From: an uncultured Clostridia bacterium
GTDB taxonomy: Bacteria; Bacillota; Clostridia; Christensenellales; UBA3700
DNA: 30,524 bases
Reading direction: 5' to 3'
NCBI GenBank assembly: GCA_947176975.1
Contig: CAMWSW010000001.1
Coordinates: forward strand, 1 to 30,524
Shown here piece after piece: positions 6,959 to 25,676 of this stretch. Made by a program: the position numbers and the translations under genes. How positions within the stretch are numbered: position 1 is the first letter of the stretch; every line of letters begins with the position of its first letter. The notes under the pieces were generated by a model. The model ran no database searches and was not told the DNA's origin. It saw only the letters and a program-made list of their open reading frames with translations.

Positions 6959-8458
6959 ATGGCAATCAATACAATATTTAAGAGCGTAAGCTCGGATTAT
7001 GAAAGAAATCTAGACGGAAAGCAAATCGTAATGCAGTGCAACTTCGACACAACGTCCAAGGGCGGTGTGAGCAAAGTATGCGCTTTGTCGAGCGACGCTC
7101 AAATCACCAAGGTGCAGGCGTTGTCAAAACAAATCAAGATAAGCGGAAGAGTTTCGCTCAAACTCGTATATCTCGACGGAGAGGGAAAGCTCAATAGTTT
7201 TGACTATATCTCCGACTTCTCGGAGGACGTCGCAGACGACGCGGTAATCGCGGATATGCCTTGCTTGGTGAGAGCAAGTATTGTCGACAGCGTGTCAAGT
7301 ATATCGGGCACTGAAATCAAGGTGCAGACAGTGGTTGAGCTTTCGCCTACCGTCGTTGAGATAAGTACCGTCGACCTTCTCGAAGAGGGCGAGGGAGCTT
7401 TGGCGTTGAGGCAGGAGCAGGATTATCAACAATATATAGCTACCGTAAGCGAAGAAGTGGAAGTGAGCGAAGAATACGACTGCGGAGCAAGAGTAGACGA
7501 CGTGCTTTTCTATGACGCAAAGGTCTTGGTCTGCAACGTTGACAACGCCGACGATAAGTTGACCGTCAGCGGTCAATTGGAGATAAGCGTCATCTATTCA
7601 AGCGAAGGCGTTCAAGCCACGAAGAATATCAATTTGCCTTTCGTGCAAGAGCTTGCGACTCGCGGAGAAGATTTGCGCGCTTGCATAGTTGCAAACGTCA
7701 AAGACAGCAGATTGATTATCGAGGGCGATGACAACGACAATACCTTGAAGATGATTATATGCGTATCTTTGCAAGGATTCGTTATGCAAGTGGAGAAGAC
7801 GACTGCAATCGTAGATTTGTATTCGCCTACCAACGCTTTGCAAATCAGCAATGAGACGGTGCGCTTTGACAGACAAAACGGCGTAATGCGTTTTGAAGAG
7901 AGAATCACCGGCAGCGTGGCAGTAGAAAACGAAGACGAGAGTATCAAGAGTATTATCAGCAGCGTCGTTACGCAAAATACTCTTTCAAATATCGTTGCAA
8001 TGCAAGATAGCGTACTTGCCGAAGGCATACTCAATACTTGCGTAATATATATGAGCGAAGGCGGAAGTATCAAGTGTATTCAAGTTGAATTGCCTTATTC
8101 TTTGCAATTTGAAAGAGAGGGAGTAAGACCTGACGATATACTTTGCGGCAACGCTATTGCGACGGATTGCGCTCACAAAGTAAAGCGTGACAGAGAAGTC
8201 GAATTGACGGCTAATATCGTCTTGTCCGTATGCTCCAAGACTCCGATTGAAAACGTCGTAATCAAAGCTGTCGAAGAGGGCGAAGCTTTGCAAGTCAACA
8301 ACAGCGCAATCAGCGTCTATCTCCCAAGCAAGGGCGAAAGCATTTGGCAAGTCGCAAAGACTTTGGGTATGTCAATAGAGAGCATTATGGCGCAAAATCC
8401 CGACTTGCGCGACGTTATGCAAGGCGATGAGAGAATCGTTATATATCGTGAGATATAA
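6959..8458 (+). CDS. SPOCS (DUF3794)-repeat plus C-terminal LysM-like protein, SipL-like spore coat assembly protein
   Basis: Three similar acidic beta-rich modules ending in 'LPF/LPY' or equivalent; C-terminal YLPSKGESIWQVAKTLGMSIESIMAQNP; positioned between veg and ispE. GGAGG RBS. Confidence 0.8.
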   Translation: MAINTIFKSVSSDYERNLDGKQIVMQCNFDTTSKGGVSKVCALSSDAQITKVQALSKQIKISGRVSLKLVYLDGEGKLNSFDYISDFSEDVADDAVIADMPCLVRASIVDSVSSISGTEIKVQTVVELSPTVVEISTVDLLEEGEGALALRQEQDYQQYIATVSEEVEVSEEYDCGARVDDVLFYDAKVLVCNVDNADDKLTVSGQLEISVIYSSEGVQATKNINLPFVQELATRGEDLRACIVANVKDSRLIIEGDDNDNTLKMIICVSLQGFVMQVEKTTAIVDLYSPTNALQISNETVRFDRQNGVMRFEERITGSVAVENEDESIKSIISSVVTQNTLSNIVAMQDSVLAEGILNTCVIYMSEGGSIKCIQVELPYSLQFEREGVRPDDILCGNAIATDCAHKVKRDREVELTANIVLSVCSKTPIENVVIKAVEEGEALQVNNSAISVYLPSKGESIWQVAKTLGMSIESIMAQNPDLRDVMQGDERIVIYREI

Positions 8459-9654: not shown

Positions 9655-10449
9655 ATGGAATCAATTAAAATCAAGGTCTACGCAAAAATCAATTTATATT
9701 TGGATATCACGGGAGTGAGAGCAGACGGCTATCACAACTTGGATATGCTTATGACTTCGGTGGACATATTTGACACTGTTACTGCGAGCAAAAGCGATAT
9801 ATCGCAAGTGACTATGGACGGCAATGCCGTCGAGGATAATAATACCGCTGTCAAGGCGCTTAAACTTTTGCAAGATAAATTTAATATTGCTATGCGTGTG
9901 GATATCGTCAAAGGCATACCTTTCTCGGCGGGCATGGGCGGATCTTCCGCCGACGCAAGCGGAGTATTTTTTTGCGCCAGCAAGCTATATGATTTGCCAA
10001 TTGACGAGCTTATTCCGCTTGCTCTCAAAGTGGGATGCGACGTGCCGTATATGCTTTTTGGCGGCGGCGCAAGAGTGCAAGGCGTGGGGGAGATAATTAT
10101 ACCGGCGGAGATATCGTCTTTGACTTTGGTAATTGCGCAAAAGAGCGTGGGAAGCTCGACTAAAGATATATACGCCAAATACGACGAGGTCGGCGGCGAA
10201 AGTGGAGACGGTAAGTTGCATTTCAATGCGTTGGAGCGCGGCGCGGTCATGCTAAATCCTCAAATTGCCATTGCAAAAGCAGATTTACAAAAGTTTACGG
10301 ACGAAGTCTTTATGACGGGCAGCGGCAGCGCATACGTAGGTATATTCGACGACGAAGAAAAAGCAAAAGAGTGTTTGGCAAGCTTGAAAGGCTACGTATT
10401 TTGCAAATCGGCTCATACAAAGGCGCAAGGTATTGAGCTTATCCGTTAA
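9655..10449 (+). CDS. ispE: 4-diphosphocytidyl-2-C-methyl-D-erythritol kinase
   Basis: AKINLYLDI...DGYHNL, GHMP motif KGIPFSAGMGGSSADA, LKVGCDVP and MTGSGSA. Confidence 0.93.
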   Translation: MESIKIKVYAKINLYLDITGVRADGYHNLDMLMTSVDIFDTVTASKSDISQVTMDGNAVEDNNTAVKALKLLQDKFNIAMRVDIVKGIPFSAGMGGSSADASGVFFCASKLYDLPIDELIPLALKVGCDVPYMLFGGGARVQGVGEIIIPAEISSLTLVIAQKSVGSSTKDIYAKYDEVGGESGDGKLHFNALERGAVMLNPQIAIAKADLQKFTDEVFMTGSGSAYVGIFDDEEKAKECLASLKGYVFCKSAHTKAQGIELIR

Positions 10450-10529
10450 AATTTTAATACAGCTAATAAATTGTCTTAATAATAAAAAAAACTTCGATTT
10501 AACAAACATATTACGCTTTTTAGCGCATA

Positions 10530-10551
10530 TTTTCTATATTCATATAGAAAA
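10530..10551. promoter_or_regulatory. 22-bp palindrome TTTTCTATAT-TC-ATATAGAAAA, operator-like
   Basis: Perfect 10-bp inverted repeat ending 4 bp upstream of the TTGCCA -35. Confidence 0.45.
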
Positions 10552-10555
10552 ATAC

Positions 10556-10584
10556 TTGCCAATTATCTATCGGTATGATATCAT
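10556..10584 (+). promoter_or_regulatory. sigmaA promoter TTGCCA-17-TGnTATCAT for the small ORF
   Basis: TTGCCA at 10556-10561, TG at 10576-10577, TATCAT at 10579-10584. Confidence 0.55.
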
Positions 10585-10603
10585 AATTTTGCAAGGGAAA
10601 GAT

Positions 10604-10753
10604 ATGGCTAAACTAAATATGCACAATTTTATAAACGACTTAAGAGAGCTCTTAATTTCAATGGGTCGCAGTAATATTGAGGATATAGAATGTTACTGTA
10701 TCGCGTACTATTGGTATTTGTTGGAACAACAGCAGAACGGCAACGAAAAATAA
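10604..10753 (+). CDS. Small hypothetical protein (49 aa)
   Basis: MAKLNMHNFINDLRELLISMGRSNIEDIECYCIAYYWYLLEQQQNGNEK, with AAGGGA RBS and its own promoter. No family recognised. Confidence 0.5.
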   Translation: MAKLNMHNFINDLRELLISMGRSNIEDIECYCIAYYWYLLEQQQNGNEK

Positions 10754-10850: not shown

Positions 10851-10879
10851 TTGATTTTATAACTCCACTATGTTATACT
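10851..10879 (+). promoter_or_regulatory. sigmaA promoter of the polysaccharide operon: TTGATT-17-TGnTATACT
   Basis: TTGATT at 10851-10856 and TATACT at 10874-10879. Direct repeat GTACTTGA at 10834 and 10847 overlaps the -35. Confidence 0.7.
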
Positions 10880-10922
10880 ATACAAATAAAAGATTTAACT
10901 GTTTTTACAGATAAGGACGATC

Positions 10923-10951
10923 GCGTTAGGGCGTTTCGGGGCCCTCAACGC
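10923..10951 (+). other. GC-rich hairpin in the 5' leader of the polysaccharide operon
   Basis: GCGTT-AGGGC-gtttcggg-GCCCT-c-AACGC; no U-tract follows. Confidence 0.55.
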
Positions 10952-10978
10952 AGAGAATTGATAACGAGGAATCAGTAC

Positions 10979-11812
10979 ATGCCTTTGAAATTAATGTATA
11001 TAACCAACAATACAGAAGTGGCTCTGATTGCGGAGAAGTACGGTGTGAACCGTATTTGGGTAGATTTGGAGAAGTTGGGCAAAGAAGAAAGACAACACGG
11101 TCTAAATACTGTAAAATCCAACCATACTATTCAAGACGTAGTGAAAATCAAATCTGTCTTGACCACCTCTGAATTATTGGTGAGAATCAACTGTTGGAAC
11201 AAAAATTCCAAAAATGAAATAGAAAACGTTATTGCAGCAGGCGCAGATGTCATTATGTTGCCAATGTGGAAGAAGCTCGAAGAAGTCCAATCGTTTATTC
11301 ATGCAGTAAATAATAGAGCGAAGACAGTGCTTCTGCTCGAGACGAAAGAGGCAGAGCAATGTCTCGATTTGGTTCTGGAGTGTTGCTGCCCCGATGAGAT
11401 TCATATCGGCTTAAACGATTTGCATTTGAGTTACGGACTAAAATTTATGTTTGAACTTCTTGCAAACGGAACAGTCGAAAGAATATGCGATAAATTGAAG
11501 AAAACAAATATACCTTACGGATTCGGTGGAATTGCCAAAATCGGTCAAGGAATGTTGCCTGCAGAAAAAATTTTGCTCGAGCACTATAGGCTGGGCTCTA
11601 CGCGAGTAATATTATCAAGAAGTTTTTGCGATACGAGCATTATAAAAGATATGTCGGAAATAGAGCAGACTTTTAAAAATAATCTCAAAGAATTGAGAGA
11701 AGCAGAAATATATGCGTGCAATGCGGATAAACAAACGCTTGAAAAAAATACGGAAGATATAAAAATATGTGTTCAAAAGGTGGTTGAGAATGTCACAAGT
11801 CGAAAAAATTAA
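10979..11812 (+). CDS. HpcH/HpaI-family (class II pyruvate) aldolase/citrate lyase-like protein
   Basis: LLVRIN (catalytic Arg), LLLETKEA (metal Glu) and IHIGLNDL (metal Asp). GAGG RBS before the ATG at 10979. Confidence 0.82.
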   Translation: MPLKLMYITNNTEVALIAEKYGVNRIWVDLEKLGKEERQHGLNTVKSNHTIQDVVKIKSVLTTSELLVRINCWNKNSKNEIENVIAAGADVIMLPMWKKLEEVQSFIHAVNNRAKTVLLLETKEAEQCLDLVLECCCPDEIHIGLNDLHLSYGLKFMFELLANGTVERICDKLKKTNIPYGFGGIAKIGQGMLPAEKILLEHYRLGSTRVILSRSFCDTSIIKDMSEIEQTFKNNLKELREAEIYACNADKQTLEKNTEDIKICVQKVVENVTSRKN

Positions 11813-13022
11813 TAGCACAAAAATTGATGAGTTAATGAAGGAATACGGGGACGCGTTTTATATTTTGGATTCAAAACAGTTTAAACAAAACTTTTCCGAA
11901 TTAAAAGAAGCGTTTTCTGCAATTTATCCCAATTTTAATATTGCCTATTCATATAAGACAAATTATACTCCCGAGCTGTGTCGAATTGTAAATGAACTTG
12001 GCGGGTTTGCGGAAGTAGTGTCCGATATGGAGATGGAAATTGCGCTCAGAGTAGGGGTTTCACCATCGAATATAATTTGGAATGGTCCGTATAAAAACAG
12101 TAAAAAAGTCGAAGAACTACTTTTGAGAGGTGGCGTCGTTAATTTGGATAATGCAGTGGATACGGAGTATTTAAAGAAAATATCCGCTAAATATCCAAAT
12201 AACAGATTGAGAGTAGGAATTCGATGCAATTTTGATATTGGAGACGGAGTTATCTCCAGATTCGGCTATGATATAGAGTCGAAAGATTTCGCGGAAGCGC
12301 TTGCATTGGTAAATGAGAAAGATAATGTAGTATTGAATGGGTTGCAATGTCATTTCGCCACCCGTTCGCTTGATACGTGGCGTCCGCGAGCAGAGAAGAT
12401 GATTGCGTTACTAGATAAATACGGTTTGTGTCCCGACTACGTAGACCTAGGCGGAGGACTGTTTGGCAAAATGCACGATTCTCTCAAAGTCCAATTCAAC
12501 ACAAAAATACCGACTTACGAAGAATATGCTACCGAAGTAGCACCTCTGTTTCGAGAGCGTTATGGAAAAGAAAAAAAGCGCCCGACGCTTTTGATAGAGC
12601 CGGGATCTGCTCTTGTCGGGGACTGTATGCGCTTTGCCTCTAGGGTAGAGTGCATAAAGACAGTAAACAAAAAACCTATAGCGACGCTTTTGGGAAGTAT
12701 CTACAATATCAATCCCACTCTTAATAAGAAAAATCCGCCGCTTCAAGTTTTGCCTGTCGGACTAGGTGAGCGTAAAAAATACGAGAACTTGGATTTCGGA
12801 GGATTTACTTGCATAGAATCCGACTATCTGTACCGCGGTTACAGCGGAGAATTGGCAGTTGGGGATATAGTGGTATTTGGAAACGTCGGTTCATACTCAG
12901 TTGTTCTCAAGCCACCGTTTATACTTCCAAATTTTCCGATATTGGAGATTGCCGAAAGGGAATGCAAAGTTGTCAAGCGCGCAGAGAATTTCGATGACTT
13001 ATTCCACACGTTTAGTTTTTAA
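11790..13022 (+). CDS. PLP-dependent decarboxylase of the LysA/ODC (fold III) family with atypical motifs
   Basis: YSYKTN (PLP Lys), EVVSDME, SRFG, DLGGG, EPGS, GFTCIESD and GSYS. Overlaps the aldolase stop. Confidence 0.85.
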   Translation: MSQVEKINSTKIDELMKEYGDAFYILDSKQFKQNFSELKEAFSAIYPNFNIAYSYKTNYTPELCRIVNELGGFAEVVSDMEMEIALRVGVSPSNIIWNGPYKNSKKVEELLLRGGVVNLDNAVDTEYLKKISAKYPNNRLRVGIRCNFDIGDGVISRFGYDIESKDFAEALALVNEKDNVVLNGLQCHFATRSLDTWRPRAEKMIALLDKYGLCPDYVDLGGGLFGKMHDSLKVQFNTKIPTYEEYATEVAPLFRERYGKEKKRPTLLIEPGSALVGDCMRFASRVECIKTVNKKPIATLLGSIYNINPTLNKKNPPLQVLPVGLGERKKYENLDFGGFTCIESDYLYRGYSGELAVGDIVVFGNVGSYSVVLKPPFILPNFPILEIAERECKVVKRAENFDDLFHTFSF

Positions 13023-13033
13023 AGGAGTTGAAA

Positions 13034-13852
13034 ATGGTTGCGATAAACAAGTTTCTCAAAAGATTGTTTGACATAACGGCATCTATGTTGCTTGTAATAC
13101 TGCTGTTGCCTGTTTGGATAATAGTGGCTATAGCAATCAAATGCGATTCCAAAGGTCCCGTGCTTTTTAAGCAGCGTCGCAGGACTAAAAAAGGACGAAT
13201 TTTTACAATGTATAAATTCCGTTCTATGGTGGTGAACGCTGAAAAGCAGGAAGTGGGTATTTTCAATTATGCAGGCGATCCGCGCGTCACGAAGGTGGGG
13301 AAATTTTTGAGAAGTACAAGCTTAGATGAGTTGCCGCAGTTGTTCAACGTAATCCAAGGCGATTTATCAATAGTCGGTCCGCGTCCATGCGTTGAATACG
13401 AACTCGGCGATTTTGATACTTTGAATAAGAAATACAAAAAACGCTTTGAAGTTCGCGCAGGAATTACAGGTTTGGCGCAGATAAAAGGCCGCAACGAAAA
13501 TTCATGGGAAGAAAAGGTCGAGTACGATAACGAATACATTGATTTGTTTAAGAAAAAAGGCGTATGGATTGATTTAAAAATACTTTTTGGGACTATAGGC
13601 AAAGTTTTTGGGAAAAAGAATATATGTGAGGAAAAAGTAGACAGTTCGCTTTCAGATGCAGAATCCGCAAAACTTGCAGAAGAAGAGATAATCAGGCTTG
13701 CGCATCTTCCCGATGAAGAAACAGTTGAAAGCGCCGCGCAGAATTTTGACCACGAACAGCCTATTGAAGAAAATGCGAATTTAATCGATGGAGTCAATGT
13801 CGAAGAAGATAAAAATAATTTGGAAAGTGAGGAAGAAAAAAGTGAAAACTGA
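13034..13852 (+). CDS. Priming phosphoglycosyl transferase (small PglC/WcfS-like bacterial sugar transferase) with an acidic C-terminal tail
   Basis: KRLFDI, SKGPVLFKQ, YKFRSM, DPRVTKVGKFLR, SLDELPQLFNV and SIVGPRP. AAGGAG RBS. Confidence 0.92.
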   Translation: MVAINKFLKRLFDITASMLLVILLLPVWIIVAIAIKCDSKGPVLFKQRRRTKKGRIFTMYKFRSMVVNAEKQEVGIFNYAGDPRVTKVGKFLRSTSLDELPQLFNVIQGDLSIVGPRPCVEYELGDFDTLNKKYKKRFEVRAGITGLAQIKGRNENSWEEKVEYDNEYIDLFKKKGVWIDLKILFGTIGKVFGKKNICEEKVDSSLSDAESAKLAEEEIIRLAHLPDEETVESAAQNFDHEQPIEENANLIDGVNVEEDKNNLESEEEKSEN

Positions 13853-14762
13853 AAATAGATATATTTGGTTTGACGGTAAGATAATGGACGTCAACGACGC
13901 AAAGGTAAACGTGCTTGCTCCTACGTCCCAGTTTGGATTAAACGTTTTTGAGGGTGTGCGTTGCTATTACAACGAAAGCAAAGAGCAGTTATATGCTTTT
14001 CGTTTGGACGATCATATAAGACGGCTAAAGCGTTCGCAGAAACTTATGTGTATTGATGATAAATTTACGTTTGAAGAACTAAAGAAAGCTTTTTTGGATA
14101 CAGTACTTGCTAATAATTATTGCGAAGATATTGCGGTAAGGCAGACTTTATTTATAGACGGATTCGGCTCGTGGAGTTCAACAAGTCCCGTGAATATGTT
14201 TATATCTCCCGTACCTAAAAAGAAAACGAATGCCGAATACAATAAAAAAGGTTTACGTTGCAGTATAAGTTCTTGGCGACGTATATCCGACAACTCACTC
14301 TCTCCGAGAATAAAGTGCGGAGCAAATTATATCAATAGTCGGATGGCGCAACTCGAAGCGTTGAGAAACGGTTATGACACCGCAATATTTATCAACGAAA
14401 ACGGTACTGTGTCGGAAGGTCCCGGTTCATGTTTGTTTATGGTTAGAGACGGCGTATTGTACACGCCGCTTTTGACAGACAGTGTGTTGGAAAGCATAAC
14501 GAGAGATACCGTAATCAAGATTGCGAGAGACGATCTAAAAATCCAAGTTGTGGAAAGAAGTATCGACCGCACGGAATTATATACGTGCGATGAGGCTTTC
14601 CTGTGCGGTTCGGCAATGGAGATAACGCCTATACTGTCAGTGGATAAGTATGAGATTCTTACGAAGGAAAATTCGCTTACGGAAACAATTCATAAGTTGT
14701 ATTTGCAAATTGTCAGAGGGGAATACTCGAAATATAAAGAATGGTTGACGGAGGTATATTAA
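13842..14762 (+). CDS. Class IV (branched-chain-amino-acid-type) PLP aminotransferase
   Basis: FGLNVFEGVR, KCGANY (PLP Lys), SEGPGSCLF, LESITR and EAFLCGSAMEITP. GTG start at 13842 with GAGG RBS. Confidence 0.88.
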   Translation: MKTENRYIWFDGKIMDVNDAKVNVLAPTSQFGLNVFEGVRCYYNESKEQLYAFRLDDHIRRLKRSQKLMCIDDKFTFEELKKAFLDTVLANNYCEDIAVRQTLFIDGFGSWSSTSPVNMFISPVPKKKTNAEYNKKGLRCSISSWRRISDNSLSPRIKCGANYINSRMAQLEALRNGYDTAIFINENGTVSEGPGSCLFMVRDGVLYTPLLTDSVLESITRDTVIKIARDDLKIQVVERSIDRTELYTCDEAFLCGSAMEITPILSVDKYEILTKENSLTETIHKLYLQIVRGEYSKYKEWLTEVY

Positions 14763-14766
14763 GAGC

Positions 14767-15612
14767 GTGACTAAAGAATTTTCTGTATTGATGACGACCT
14801 ATCGCGGAGAAACTCCCGAATTTTTAGAAGCGTCGCTCAACAGTACTTTGATAGATCAGACTGTTACTCCGAGTCAAATGGTGTTGGTAGTCGACGGACC
14901 TATTCCGGACGAATTAAATGAGGTGATACTCAAATATAAAGAGATGTTTCCCGAAATAATGGAAGTGGTATATTCTCCCGAAAATCAGGGGCAGAGTAAA
15001 GCGTCGGCTTTAGGTCTGCAATATATCAAGAACGAGATTCTTGCCCGAATGGATTCGGACGACGTATGCGTAAGAGATAGATTCGAGCGTGAGTATAACG
15101 TTTTGCAAGAACGTGATAATATATCTGTTGTCGGCGGTTGGATAGCGGAATTTGACAACGATCCGGAATCAGTCAGCACAATTCGTGAAGTTCCGGAAAA
15201 TCACGATGATATCGTAAGAATGTTCCGCAAAAGAATGCCCCTTAACAATATGACTGTAATGATGCGCAAGGAGGCTCTTATACAGGCAGGAGGTTATGGC
15301 AGAGATACGGTAAACGAAGATTATTCCGTCTACGCTCATATGTGGGTCAGCGGGGCGCAATTTTATAATATACAAGATGTTCTAGTGAAAGCTCGCGTTG
15401 GCAATGATATGGTCGGCAGGCGTCAAGATATGAGGATATACAGAGATTGGAGAAAGGATCAAAAGTTTCTTCGTCAAAATGGTAAACATTCGCGTCTCAC
15501 CGCAGCGGTGAGCAACTTTAGATGTTTTTGCTTTATTATTACTCCGAAATGGGTAAAGAAGATACTATATAAAACTCTTTTGAGGAAAAAAATAAAATCT
15601 ACGGATAAATAA
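14767..15612 (+). CDS. GT2 glycosyltransferase (AmsE/WbbD-like, possibly beta-1,3-galactosyltransferase)
   Basis: FSVLMTTY...PEFLEASLNS, LVVDGP, ARMDSDD and EDY; GTG start. Confidence 0.85.
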   Translation: MTKEFSVLMTTYRGETPEFLEASLNSTLIDQTVTPSQMVLVVDGPIPDELNEVILKYKEMFPEIMEVVYSPENQGQSKASALGLQYIKNEILARMDSDDVCVRDRFEREYNVLQERDNISVVGGWIAEFDNDPESVSTIREVPENHDDIVRMFRKRMPLNNMTVMMRKEALIQAGGYGRDTVNEDYSVYAHMWVSGAQFYNIQDVLVKARVGNDMVGRRQDMRIYRDWRKDQKFLRQNGKHSRLTAAVSNFRCFCFIITPKWVKKILYKTLLRKKIKSTDK

Positions 15613-25586: not shown

Positions 25587-25676
25587 TGGCAGAGAGTGAG
25601 GGATTTGAACCCTCGGAACGGTTTGCCGTTCACACGATTTCCAATCGTGCGCCTTCGACCACTCAGCCAACTCTCT
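25587..25676 (-). tRNA. tRNA-Ser(GGA)
   Basis: Acceptor stem AGAGAGT/ACTCTCT, discriminator G and encoded CCA; anticodon arm CACGA-TTGGAAA-TCGTG; long variable arm GAACGG/CCGTTC; GGTTCAAATCC T-loop. 90 nt. Confidence 0.97.

Follow-up and report, generated by a model that had tools for sequence, protein, structure and literature searches.

A conserved aldolase and phosphoglycosyl transferase cassette in a Clostridia glycan operon as a candidate source of C4-branched priming sugars

Introduction

What kind of sugar would be made by a glycan operon that opens with an aldolase, an amino acid decarboxylase and a class IV aminotransferase wrapped around the enzyme that primes undecaprenyl phosphate? 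The question is raised by a stretch of 30,524 nucleotides (nt) from an uncultured Clostridia bacterium (contig CAMWSW010000001.1, positions 1 to 30,524; hereafter the window), in which four genes on the + strand (10979-14762) encode an HpcH-like aldolase, a fold-type III decarboxylase dependent on pyridoxal phosphate (PLP), a small phosphoglycosyl transferase (PGT) and a class IV aminotransferase that resembles the branched-chain aminotransferases (BCAT). These four genes, called the cassette below, were all found where a first-pass annotation had placed them, at the head of a glycan operon, and they overlap or lie at most 11 nt apart. The long + strand operon begins at about 10979 and continues after the cassette with genes for GT2, LicD, a further GT2, Wzy, IspD together with a short-chain dehydrogenase/reductase (SDR) of the cytidine diphosphate (CDP)-ribitol type, Wzx, and rmlABCD.

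Carbon branches on sugars are known to be made by thiamine diphosphate (ThDP) enzymes, by S-adenosylmethionine (SAM) methylation or by ring contraction. A literature search found no paper on this gene set, on HpcH enzymes in capsule clusters or on branched sugars made by an aldolase, the earlier remark having been that no characterised pathway is known with these genes, and a 2024 survey of the PGT superfamily mentions no aldolase or decarboxylase (PMC11626204). The cassette appears to be a module for tailoring the priming sugar, and its chemistry would be undescribed. In its general form, the reading is that the priming sugar receives a 2-oxo-acid side chain derived from pyruvate, which is tailored afterwards, and this is considered likely. 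In its specific form, pyruvate would be added to a 4-keto-6-deoxy-N-acetylhexosamine (HexNAc), then transaminated and decarboxylated to leave a C4-aminoethyl priming sugar; all steps are inferred, and the balance tips modestly in favour of this form.

Conservation of the cassette and exchange of its tailoring genes

Relatives of the aldolase-like protein number more than 8000 in the protein collection, most of them 60-69% identical to it; they form 587 clusters (50% identity, E<=1e-30) and are present in at least 564 species genomes. The 80 loci that were fetched come from Clostridia (Christensenellales, Oscillospirales, Lachnospirales), Bacilli, Negativicutes, Bacteroidota, Fibrobacter, Spirochaetia and one Riflebacteria metagenome-assembled genome (MAG). 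Co-occurrence of the four genes in other glycan loci had been set as a test beforehand, and the order aldolase-decarboxylase-PGT-aminotransferase is kept exactly in 55 of the 70 loci with enough downstream sequence, across at least five phyla and at 58-84% aldolase identity. Because 55 of 70 related loci share this order, the four-gene arrangement is far from chance. A GT2 gene nearly always lies 3' of the aminotransferase gene. DegT/PglE-type aminotransferases occur in only five of 86 related loci; for the operon described here, their absence had been pointed out earlier, and tblastn with E. coli WecE as the query (E<=1e-3) finds none in the window. Across the cassette loci, no ligase able to attach a free amine or acid is conserved.

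The aldolase and the PGT persist as a pair in loci that have neither the decarboxylase nor the aminotransferase. The constant core is the aldolase with the PGT, and the tailoring step varies. For example, five loci read aldolase-PGT-Ldh_2, with a Ldh_2 protein that NCBIfam matches best to L-sulfolactate dehydrogenase. Other loci read PGT followed by an aldolase::D-2-hydroxyacid dehydrogenase fusion, or a PGT::aldolase fusion followed by D-2-hydroxyacid dehydrogenase, and one minimal locus holds only aldolase, PGT and GT4 genes. Ldh_2 and D-2-hydroxyacid dehydrogenase are two unrelated families of 2-oxo-acid reductases, each of which adjoins and is fused to the aldolase in variant loci. Since the pair of aminotransferase and decarboxylase is replaced by either of these two families, the product of the aldolase is most likely a 2-oxo acid, as had been suggested when the route was first sketched.

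Gene fusions tie the enzymes to each other and to glycan assembly. The aldolase is fused to a 4,6-dehydratase domain for uridine diphosphate (UDP)-N-acetylglucosamine (UDP-GlcNAc) in three members on three separate contigs (PF02719, 355 bits; PseB/FnlA-like). Among the cluster representatives are also PGT::aldolase, PGT::GT4::aldolase, GT4::aldolase and aldolase::decarboxylase proteins, and fusions with Ldh_2 and with D-2-hydroxyacid dehydrogenase. In several loci the aldolase stands behind a transmembrane (TM) and CoA_binding_3 module of ~320 amino acids (aa) that otherwise precedes PglF/CapD dehydratases and large PGTs, and in three loci the aminotransferase is fused to GT2 in a protein of ~600 aa (Table 1). 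Such fusions are hard to reconcile with a pathway of free metabolites and point to a place for the enzymes early in glycan assembly, in the first steps close to the membrane. The conserved synteny and the aldolase::decarboxylase fusions, taken together, support the claim that the three enzymes work with the PGT in a single route. A complex prediction for aldolase and PGT gave a score of 0.00 without control runs and speaks neither for nor against binding.

Two observations on these fusion loci may be added. The assemblies break 100-200 nt upstream of the gene in two aldolase::dehydratase loci (L098:115-2007 and L102:198-2048), and a repeated or strain-variable glycan locus may precede it. A VanZ::PGT fusion follows the TM+CoA_binding_3::aldolase gene in L048.

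The aldolase

The aldolase of the window scores 20.7 bits against Pfam HpcH_HpaI (PF03328), below the cut-off of 25, and family members and fusion proteins score 29-67 bits. Profile comparison by hhalign with E. coli YfaU gives a probability of 96.4%, and a sequence search of the PDB returned no match at E<=1. The AlphaFold2 (AF2) model, with a predicted local distance difference test (pLDDT) score of 88.5, is a (beta/alpha)8 TIM barrel of the phosphoenolpyruvate (PEP)/pyruvate type. Foldseek aligns it with HpaI, HpcH and YfaU at a template modelling (TM) score of 0.56-0.65 and a root-mean-square deviation (rmsd) of ~3 A, with the barrels of pyruvate kinase and Enzyme I at similar E-values. 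R69, E121 and D147, invariant in 27-28 family members, align with the catalytic Arg (R74) and the metal ligands (E153, D179) of YfaU.

The protein thus shares with HpcH/HpaI/YfaU the TIM barrel (TM score ~0.6), the two acidic metal ligands and the catalytic Arg, whereas it differs in its 15-18% identity, the lack of the active-site His, an invariant basic insert, its setting in glycan loci, its fusions to PGT, GT and dehydratase domains and the keto-sugar acceptor proposed for it. The insert comprises 14 residues in place of YfaU H49, with K35, E36, R38, Q39, K46, S47 and H49 invariant, and is a possible binding site for a phosphate-rich substrate. Membership of the HpcH/HpaI fold family is indicated by these comparisons, and a pyruvate aldol activity is predicted.

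Three other roles for the barrel were considered and set aside. PEP mutase, which would lead from phosphonopyruvate through phosphonoalanine to 2-aminoethylphosphonate, was rejected on the grounds that the protein aligns motif by motif with HpcH/YfaU instead, and that no phosphonate-type cytidylyltransferase is conserved. A route from sulfopyruvate to cysteate and then taurine, or to sulfolactate, fits the alternation of aminotransferase plus decarboxylase with Ldh_2, but no cassette enzyme would make sulfopyruvate and the dehydratase, PGT and GT fusions would go unexplained. Phosphorylation of undecaprenol from PEP by a barrel of the pyruvate kinase kind was dropped, as it leaves no role for the aminotransferase, the decarboxylase or the reductases.

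The phosphoglycosyl transferase

The PGT belongs to Bac_transf (PF02397, 219 bits), carries the Asp-Glu dyad and the PRP motif, with DELPQ and GPRP invariant, and aligns about equally to PglC and to the catalytic domain of WbaP. In the PGTs specific for N,N'-diacetylbacillosamine (diNAcBac), the PglC cluster, a GLLLP loop motif is co-conserved with an aromatic box (PMC10186338). This motif is not in the cassette PGT, where the loop aligned to G-E-L-L-P of PglC reads G-I-F-N-Y. Beyond the PglC-type core, the cassette PGTs have a C-terminal extension with the consensus ...AAKxAEEEIIRxAHLPD, in which R221, A223, H224 and P226 are invariant in 27 sequences; it may serve to bind the donor sugar or substrate, or as a docking helix for partner enzymes. 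The long acidic tail that follows (13715-13849) occurs only in this genome and in its nearest relatives.

The decarboxylase and the aminotransferase

The source of the window is a Clostridia MAG of 1.3 Mb that is ~70% complete. The decarboxylase scores 132 bits against the LysA model TIGR01048 (cut-off 297.9), with Pfam scores of 90.8 bits for PF02784 and 26.8 bits for PF00278, and its nearest solved structures are LysA, FslC and BtrK. FslC and BtrK act on amino acids with a bulky distal group. The motifs of the PLP Lys, the His, the GGG stretch and the active-site Cys are kept (YSYKTN, HFA, GGG, TCIESD). R271, R307 and Y311 of E. coli LysA, which we take to hold the distal carboxylate of diaminopimelate, are replaced in all cassette decarboxylases: EPGR has become EPG(S/+)A, and RPAMY has given way to other residues.

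The aminotransferase tells a comparable story. Its catalytic core (K159, E193, R59, R97, Y164) is kept in 53 of 53 cassette copies, and in the same 53 the side-chain pocket of IlvE is remodelled, with W126 changed to K/R, Y129 deleted, Y95 and V109 each changed to S/A, and M107 to W. Y95, V109, W126 and Y129 presumably form the hydrophobic side-chain pocket of E. coli IlvE, and by this alignment the pocket of the cassette enzyme is an open and basic one in place of a hydrophobic one. As judged from the aligned residues, both cassette enzymes are ones with catalytic residues kept and substrate pockets changed, and the names 'IlvE' and 'LysA' given to such genes inside glycan loci would be misleading. 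Neither gene is the only copy in its genome, a point on which the earlier reading partly hung: contig C31 carries another IlvE, of type II (460 bits, cut-off 307), and a separate LysA-like gene scores 279 bits, against 132 for the cassette decarboxylase.

The link to a sugar dehydratase

In 15 of 67 loci, the 3 kb upstream of the aldolase gene contain a gene for a PglF/CapD-type dehydratase of ~620 aa. Such loci have a typical capsule layout, in which Wzz/kinase genes are followed by CapD and then by the cassette, and they include one locus of variant B, the reductase type. With two exceptions they have no DegT aminotransferase, and in both exceptions that enzyme belongs to a separate set for a diacetamido-uronic acid. 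Because the CapD-adjacent loci have no DegT enzyme of their own for the 4-keto sugar, the cassette would be its only visible consumer. In the MAG studied here, a 661-aa CapD/PglF-like gene lies outside the window on contig C117, beside a GalE-like gene (PF02719, 408-410 bits). This adjacency, the aldolase::4,6-dehydratase fusion, the dehydratase in the genome and the lack of a DegT enzyme make UDP-4-keto-6-deoxy-HexNAc the best supported of the acceptors that had been put forward.

Elsewhere, a PGT::aldolase locus (L100:1199-5099) is immediately preceded by a second small PGT together with a CapE/FnlA-CapF-CapG-like set, which is the route to UDP-N-acetyl-L-fucosamine (UDP-L-FucNAc). From this neighbourhood, 4-keto sugars of inverting-type dehydratases may also feed the aldolase.

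The proposed route

The route would begin with the PglF/CapD dehydratase encoded elsewhere in the genome, converting UDP-GlcNAc to UDP-2-acetamido-2,6-dideoxy-hex-4-ulose. The Mg-dependent HpcH-like aldolase would then add the C3 enolate of pyruvate to the C4 ketone, giving a tertiary alcohol with a -CH2-CO-COOH branch, that is, a 4-C-(2-oxo-2-carboxyethyl) group. This 2-oxo acid would be turned into an amino acid by the BCAT-like aminotransferase, a scaffold that would have been recruited because the branch mimics 4-methyl-2-oxopentanoate, the gamma-branched 2-oxo acid of leucine that BCAT enzymes ordinarily accept. The LysA-like decarboxylase would remove CO2 to leave a 4-C-(2-aminoethyl) branch that ends in a free primary amine. 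Aldol addition, transamination and decarboxylation could take place on the UDP-sugar or on the lipid-linked sugar, and both are compatible with the PGT/GT fusions and the membrane anchors. The small PGT would transfer the sugar-1-phosphate onto undecaprenyl phosphate, and GT2 would add the next sugar. With the amine, ribitol phosphate added by LicD (through LicD and IspD+SDR) and rhamnose in one polymer, the product would be zwitterionic.

If this is true, a new kind of branched-sugar biosynthesis through a metal-dependent pyruvate aldolase would be at hand, and a new free-amine sugar would be placed at the start of the repeat unit. In hundreds of species from gut and rumen, belonging to several phyla, loci of the capsule type open with the cassette, and hence a sizeable share of commensal surface chemistry would be concerned. 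A free amine beside a phosphate or a uronic acid could give zwitterionic polysaccharides, a class known for T-cell-dependent immunomodulation; UDP-glucose dehydrogenase is encoded in at least seven cassette loci. A wider proposal can be advanced tentatively, as something quite possible: that this family of class II pyruvate aldolases makes C-C bonds on nucleotide-linked or lipid-linked 4-keto sugars and so seeds priming sugars branched at C4, whether in oxo-acid, hydroxy-acid, amide or aminoethyl form, across more than 500 gut and rumen species, and that the aminoethyl form together with alditol phosphate or uronic acid makes up an unrecognised class of zwitterionic polysaccharides, invisible to screens based on WcfR/WcfS. 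Cultured carriers exist, among them Blautia schinkii DSM 10518 (L029), Anaerovibrio lipolyticus LB2005 (L063), Selenomonas caprae (L088) and Blautia sp. HCP3S3_G3 (L061), so that the idea is directly testable.

Comparison with known systems

The closest parallel in organisation is found in PglF-PglE-PglD-PglC of Campylobacter and EpsC-EpsN-EpsM-EpsL of Bacillus subtilis, which synthesise UDP-diNAcBac and prime with it. The cassette resembles them in its position at the head of the locus, in the membrane-anchored 4,6-dehydratase with CoA_binding_3 in the same locus or genome, and in an apparent tailoring of the C4 keto group ahead of a small monotopic PGT. However, the DegT aminotransferase and the acetyltransferase are missing, and an aldolase, a fold-type III decarboxylase and a class IV aminotransferase stand instead; the PGT has no GLLLP and has a C-terminal extension of its own, and the product would be C-branched, not N-substituted. 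A further parallel is WcfR/WcfS, which prime polysaccharide A of Bacteroides fragilis, the paradigm of zwitterionic polysaccharides, with 2-acetamido-4-amino-2,4,6-trideoxygalactose (AATGal). A free-amine priming sugar, a small PGT, a gut commensal and an anionic group would be common to both, but in the WcfR/WcfS system a DegT enzyme puts the amine directly on C4, with no C-C bond formed and no decarboxylase.

For the product, the nearest chemical precedent appears to be shewanellose of Shewanella putrefaciens A6, which is 2-acetamido-2,6-dideoxy-4-C-(3'-carboxamide-2',2'-dihydroxypropyl)-D-galactose (PMC4052302). The earlier appeal to this sugar holds, in that it is a 6-deoxy-HexNAc whose C4 branch bears a hydrated keto group adjacent to a carboxyl derivative (a carboxamide), as expected if a 2-oxo acid is joined by aldol addition to a 4-keto sugar. 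Shewanellose is amidated, whereas the branch made by the cassette would be aminated and decarboxylated to aminoethyl. Acyl branching by ThDP-dependent enzymes (YerE, and clusters of the erwiniose/caryophyllose type) is likewise reported to make a C-C bond on a nucleotide-linked keto-sugar and to yield a tertiary alcohol (PMC9306805, PMC12247030). It differs from the cassette proposal in that a ThDP lyase uses an acyl anion from decarboxylated pyruvate, whereas a metal-dependent aldolase would use the C3 enolate of pyruvate and retain the carboxylate.

Points against the proposal and alternative explanations

Several points weigh against the C4-aminoethyl proposal. All of the chemistry rests on comparative genomics; the acceptor of the aldolase is inferred from gene neighbourhood and fusions only. 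Class II pyruvate aldolases normally take aldehydes, and we know of no characterised natural case of one using a ketone on a nucleotide sugar. The equivalent of YfaU H49, corresponding to HpcH H45 and presumably the active-site His that aids proton transfer, is not conserved in the aldolase, which has K/T there, followed by the 14-residue insert. By score the aminotransferase is still an IlvE equivalog, above the cut-offs of both models (NF005146, 299 against 279; TIGR01122, 267 against 246). The number of carbons in the shewanellose branch is ambiguous in the source. An adjacent dehydratase is missing in 78% of loci. The expected co-occurrence of PglF/CapD in cassette genomes was indeed seen, as 29 of 30 genomes without an adjacent CapD carry one elsewhere, but it does not discriminate: CapD-type genes are found in 115 of 150 sampled Clostridia genomes, and genome-wide co-occurrence is weak evidence. 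Adjacency and fusions are relied on because that co-occurrence is too common to decide.

Among the alternatives, the one that survives best is that the same chemistry takes place on a free small aldehyde and gives a soluble hydroxy-alkylamine or amino-polyol, which is attached later, for example by LicD or a GT. Free aldehydes are the normal substrates of HpcH enzymes, the aminotransferase is still IlvE-like, and LicD together with CDP-alcohol genes is present in this operon and in 18 of the 80 loci. However, only about a third of the cassette loci carry LicD, and in this operon the CDP-ribitol genes IspD+SDR already explain its presence; the earlier option of a free amino-polyol moved by LicD finds no support. 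The cassette has no conserved companion gene for a kinase, nucleotidyltransferase or ligase that would act on such an amine. A free product would also leave unexplained why the PGT is a constant partner and why fusions join the aldolase to sugar dehydratase, PGT or GT4 and the aminotransferase to GT2, and the minimal loci with only aldolase and PGT could not be accommodated. A free aldehyde as the acceptor is therefore rather unlikely.

It is unlikely, too, that the 4-keto sugar itself is the substrate aminated by the class IV aminotransferase, as with PglE and WcfR, with the reductases of variant loci acting on the same keto group and the aldolase-like protein and the decarboxylase being accessory or regulatory to the PGT. 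The matches of the aminotransferase do include fold-type IV amine transaminases that take ketones without a carboxylate, and the cassette occupies the gene position of PglE/PglD in other capsule loci. Nevertheless, R97, which binds the alpha-carboxylate, is kept in the aminotransferase along with the other BCAT core residues; 2-oxo acids are the substrates of Ldh_2 and D-2-hydroxyacid dehydrogenases, and no role would be left for the aldolase, the most conserved member, with its catalytic Arg and metal ligands kept, or for the decarboxylase that is fused to it.

In a third alternative the aldolase lengthens the sugar chain and makes no branch, adding pyruvate to an aldehyde, either C1 of a released 6-deoxy-hexose or a C6 aldehyde, to form a 3-deoxy-2-ulosonic acid that is then aminated and decarboxylated. 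This would give the aldolase the usual acceptor of its class; it is very unlikely, however, as no nucleotide-sugar hydrolase or cytidine monophosphate (CMP)-transferase is conserved with the cassette, and the PGT, the tightest partner of the cassette, needs a UDP-sugar donor. Lastly, that the decarboxylase and the aminotransferase are ordinary lysA and ilvE genes lying by chance in a glycan operon is hardly credible, since, although NCBIfam names them so and the aminotransferase is above the IlvE cut-off, a type II IlvE and a LysA-like gene of higher score are encoded separately in the genome, the substrate pockets of the cassette copies are altered, and the two genes travel with the aldolase and the PGT across phyla and are elsewhere fused to the aldolase or GT2.

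Features of the window and of related loci

The positions of the features are collected in Table 1. The aldolase gene starts with ATG behind a GAGGA ribosome-binding site 8 nt upstream. For the decarboxylase, the likely start is an ATG behind AAGGTGG, which gives an overlap of 23 nt with the aldolase gene, and its stop is followed by a gap of 11 nt before the PGT gene. The likely start of the aminotransferase is a GTG behind GAGGAAG; the resulting length matches that of its relatives, and the gene overlaps the stop of the PGT gene by 11 nt.

Table 1. Positions of features in the window and, where a locus number is given, in related loci
Feature	Position	Strand	Remarks
Promoter-like site TTGATT-17-TATACT with TG	10851..10879	+	Consensus match only; ~100 nt upstream of aldolase start
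HpcH/HpaI-like class II (metal-dependent) pyruvate aldolase homologue	10979..11812	+	277 aa; constant partner of the PGT
Fold-type III PLP decarboxylase (LysA/FslC/BtrK lineage)	11790..13022	+	~410 aa; alternative GTG start 11769
Small monotopic PGT (Bac_transf), predicted to prime undecaprenyl phosphate	13034..13852	+	Alternative TTG start 13028
C-terminal extension of the PGT, conserved among cassette PGTs	13622..13714	+	PGT residues ~197-227
Class IV (BCAT-lineage) aminotransferase	13842..14762	+	~306 aa; alternative ATG start 13788
GT2 glycosyltransferase, probable second step on lipid-linked priming sugar	14767..15612	+	4 nt after aminotransferase
TM+CoA_binding_3::aldolase fusion	L048:6026-7840, L065:6029-7840, L067:6014-7837, L042:538-2331, L085		In L085, a 603-aa open reading frame (ORF) directly upstream of the decarboxylase gene
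Aminotransferase::GT2 fusion	L017:7840-9633, L026:9724-11601, L052:10002-11810
Fe-S protein	L035:7071-8330, L057:5214-6383, L060:7863-9038, L070:8730-9905, L074		In L074, a 392-aa ORF between the cytidylyltransferase and LicD genes

The single promoter that had been ascribed to the four genes is plausible and no firmer than that: a promoter-like site does lie upstream and is a match to the consensus, and inside the block the + strand has only weak terminator-like matches (5-6 bp stems), which are not clearly above shuffle expectation. No regulatory RNA was found in the 100-nt leader (10880-10978), which matches no Rfam family and has no unusual fold (z = -1.55).

Further genes were noted in passing. 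In five cassette loci, an Fe-S protein of ~400 aa with two 4Fe-4S motifs and an FrhB_FdhB_C domain is encoded between a small cytidylyltransferase and LicD. In the window, a small ORF at 10433-10753 (up to 106 aa, or 49 aa from an ATG at 10604), which has no Pfam match, lies between a GHMP-kinase gene and the cassette promoter, and a lone tRNA gene on the - strand (25590-25676; Rfam, 56 bits) parts the rml genes from the next gene block. Upstream of the operon, at 6959-8458, there is a gene for the sporulation protein SipL, with its SPOCS domain, which fits a spore-forming Clostridia host.

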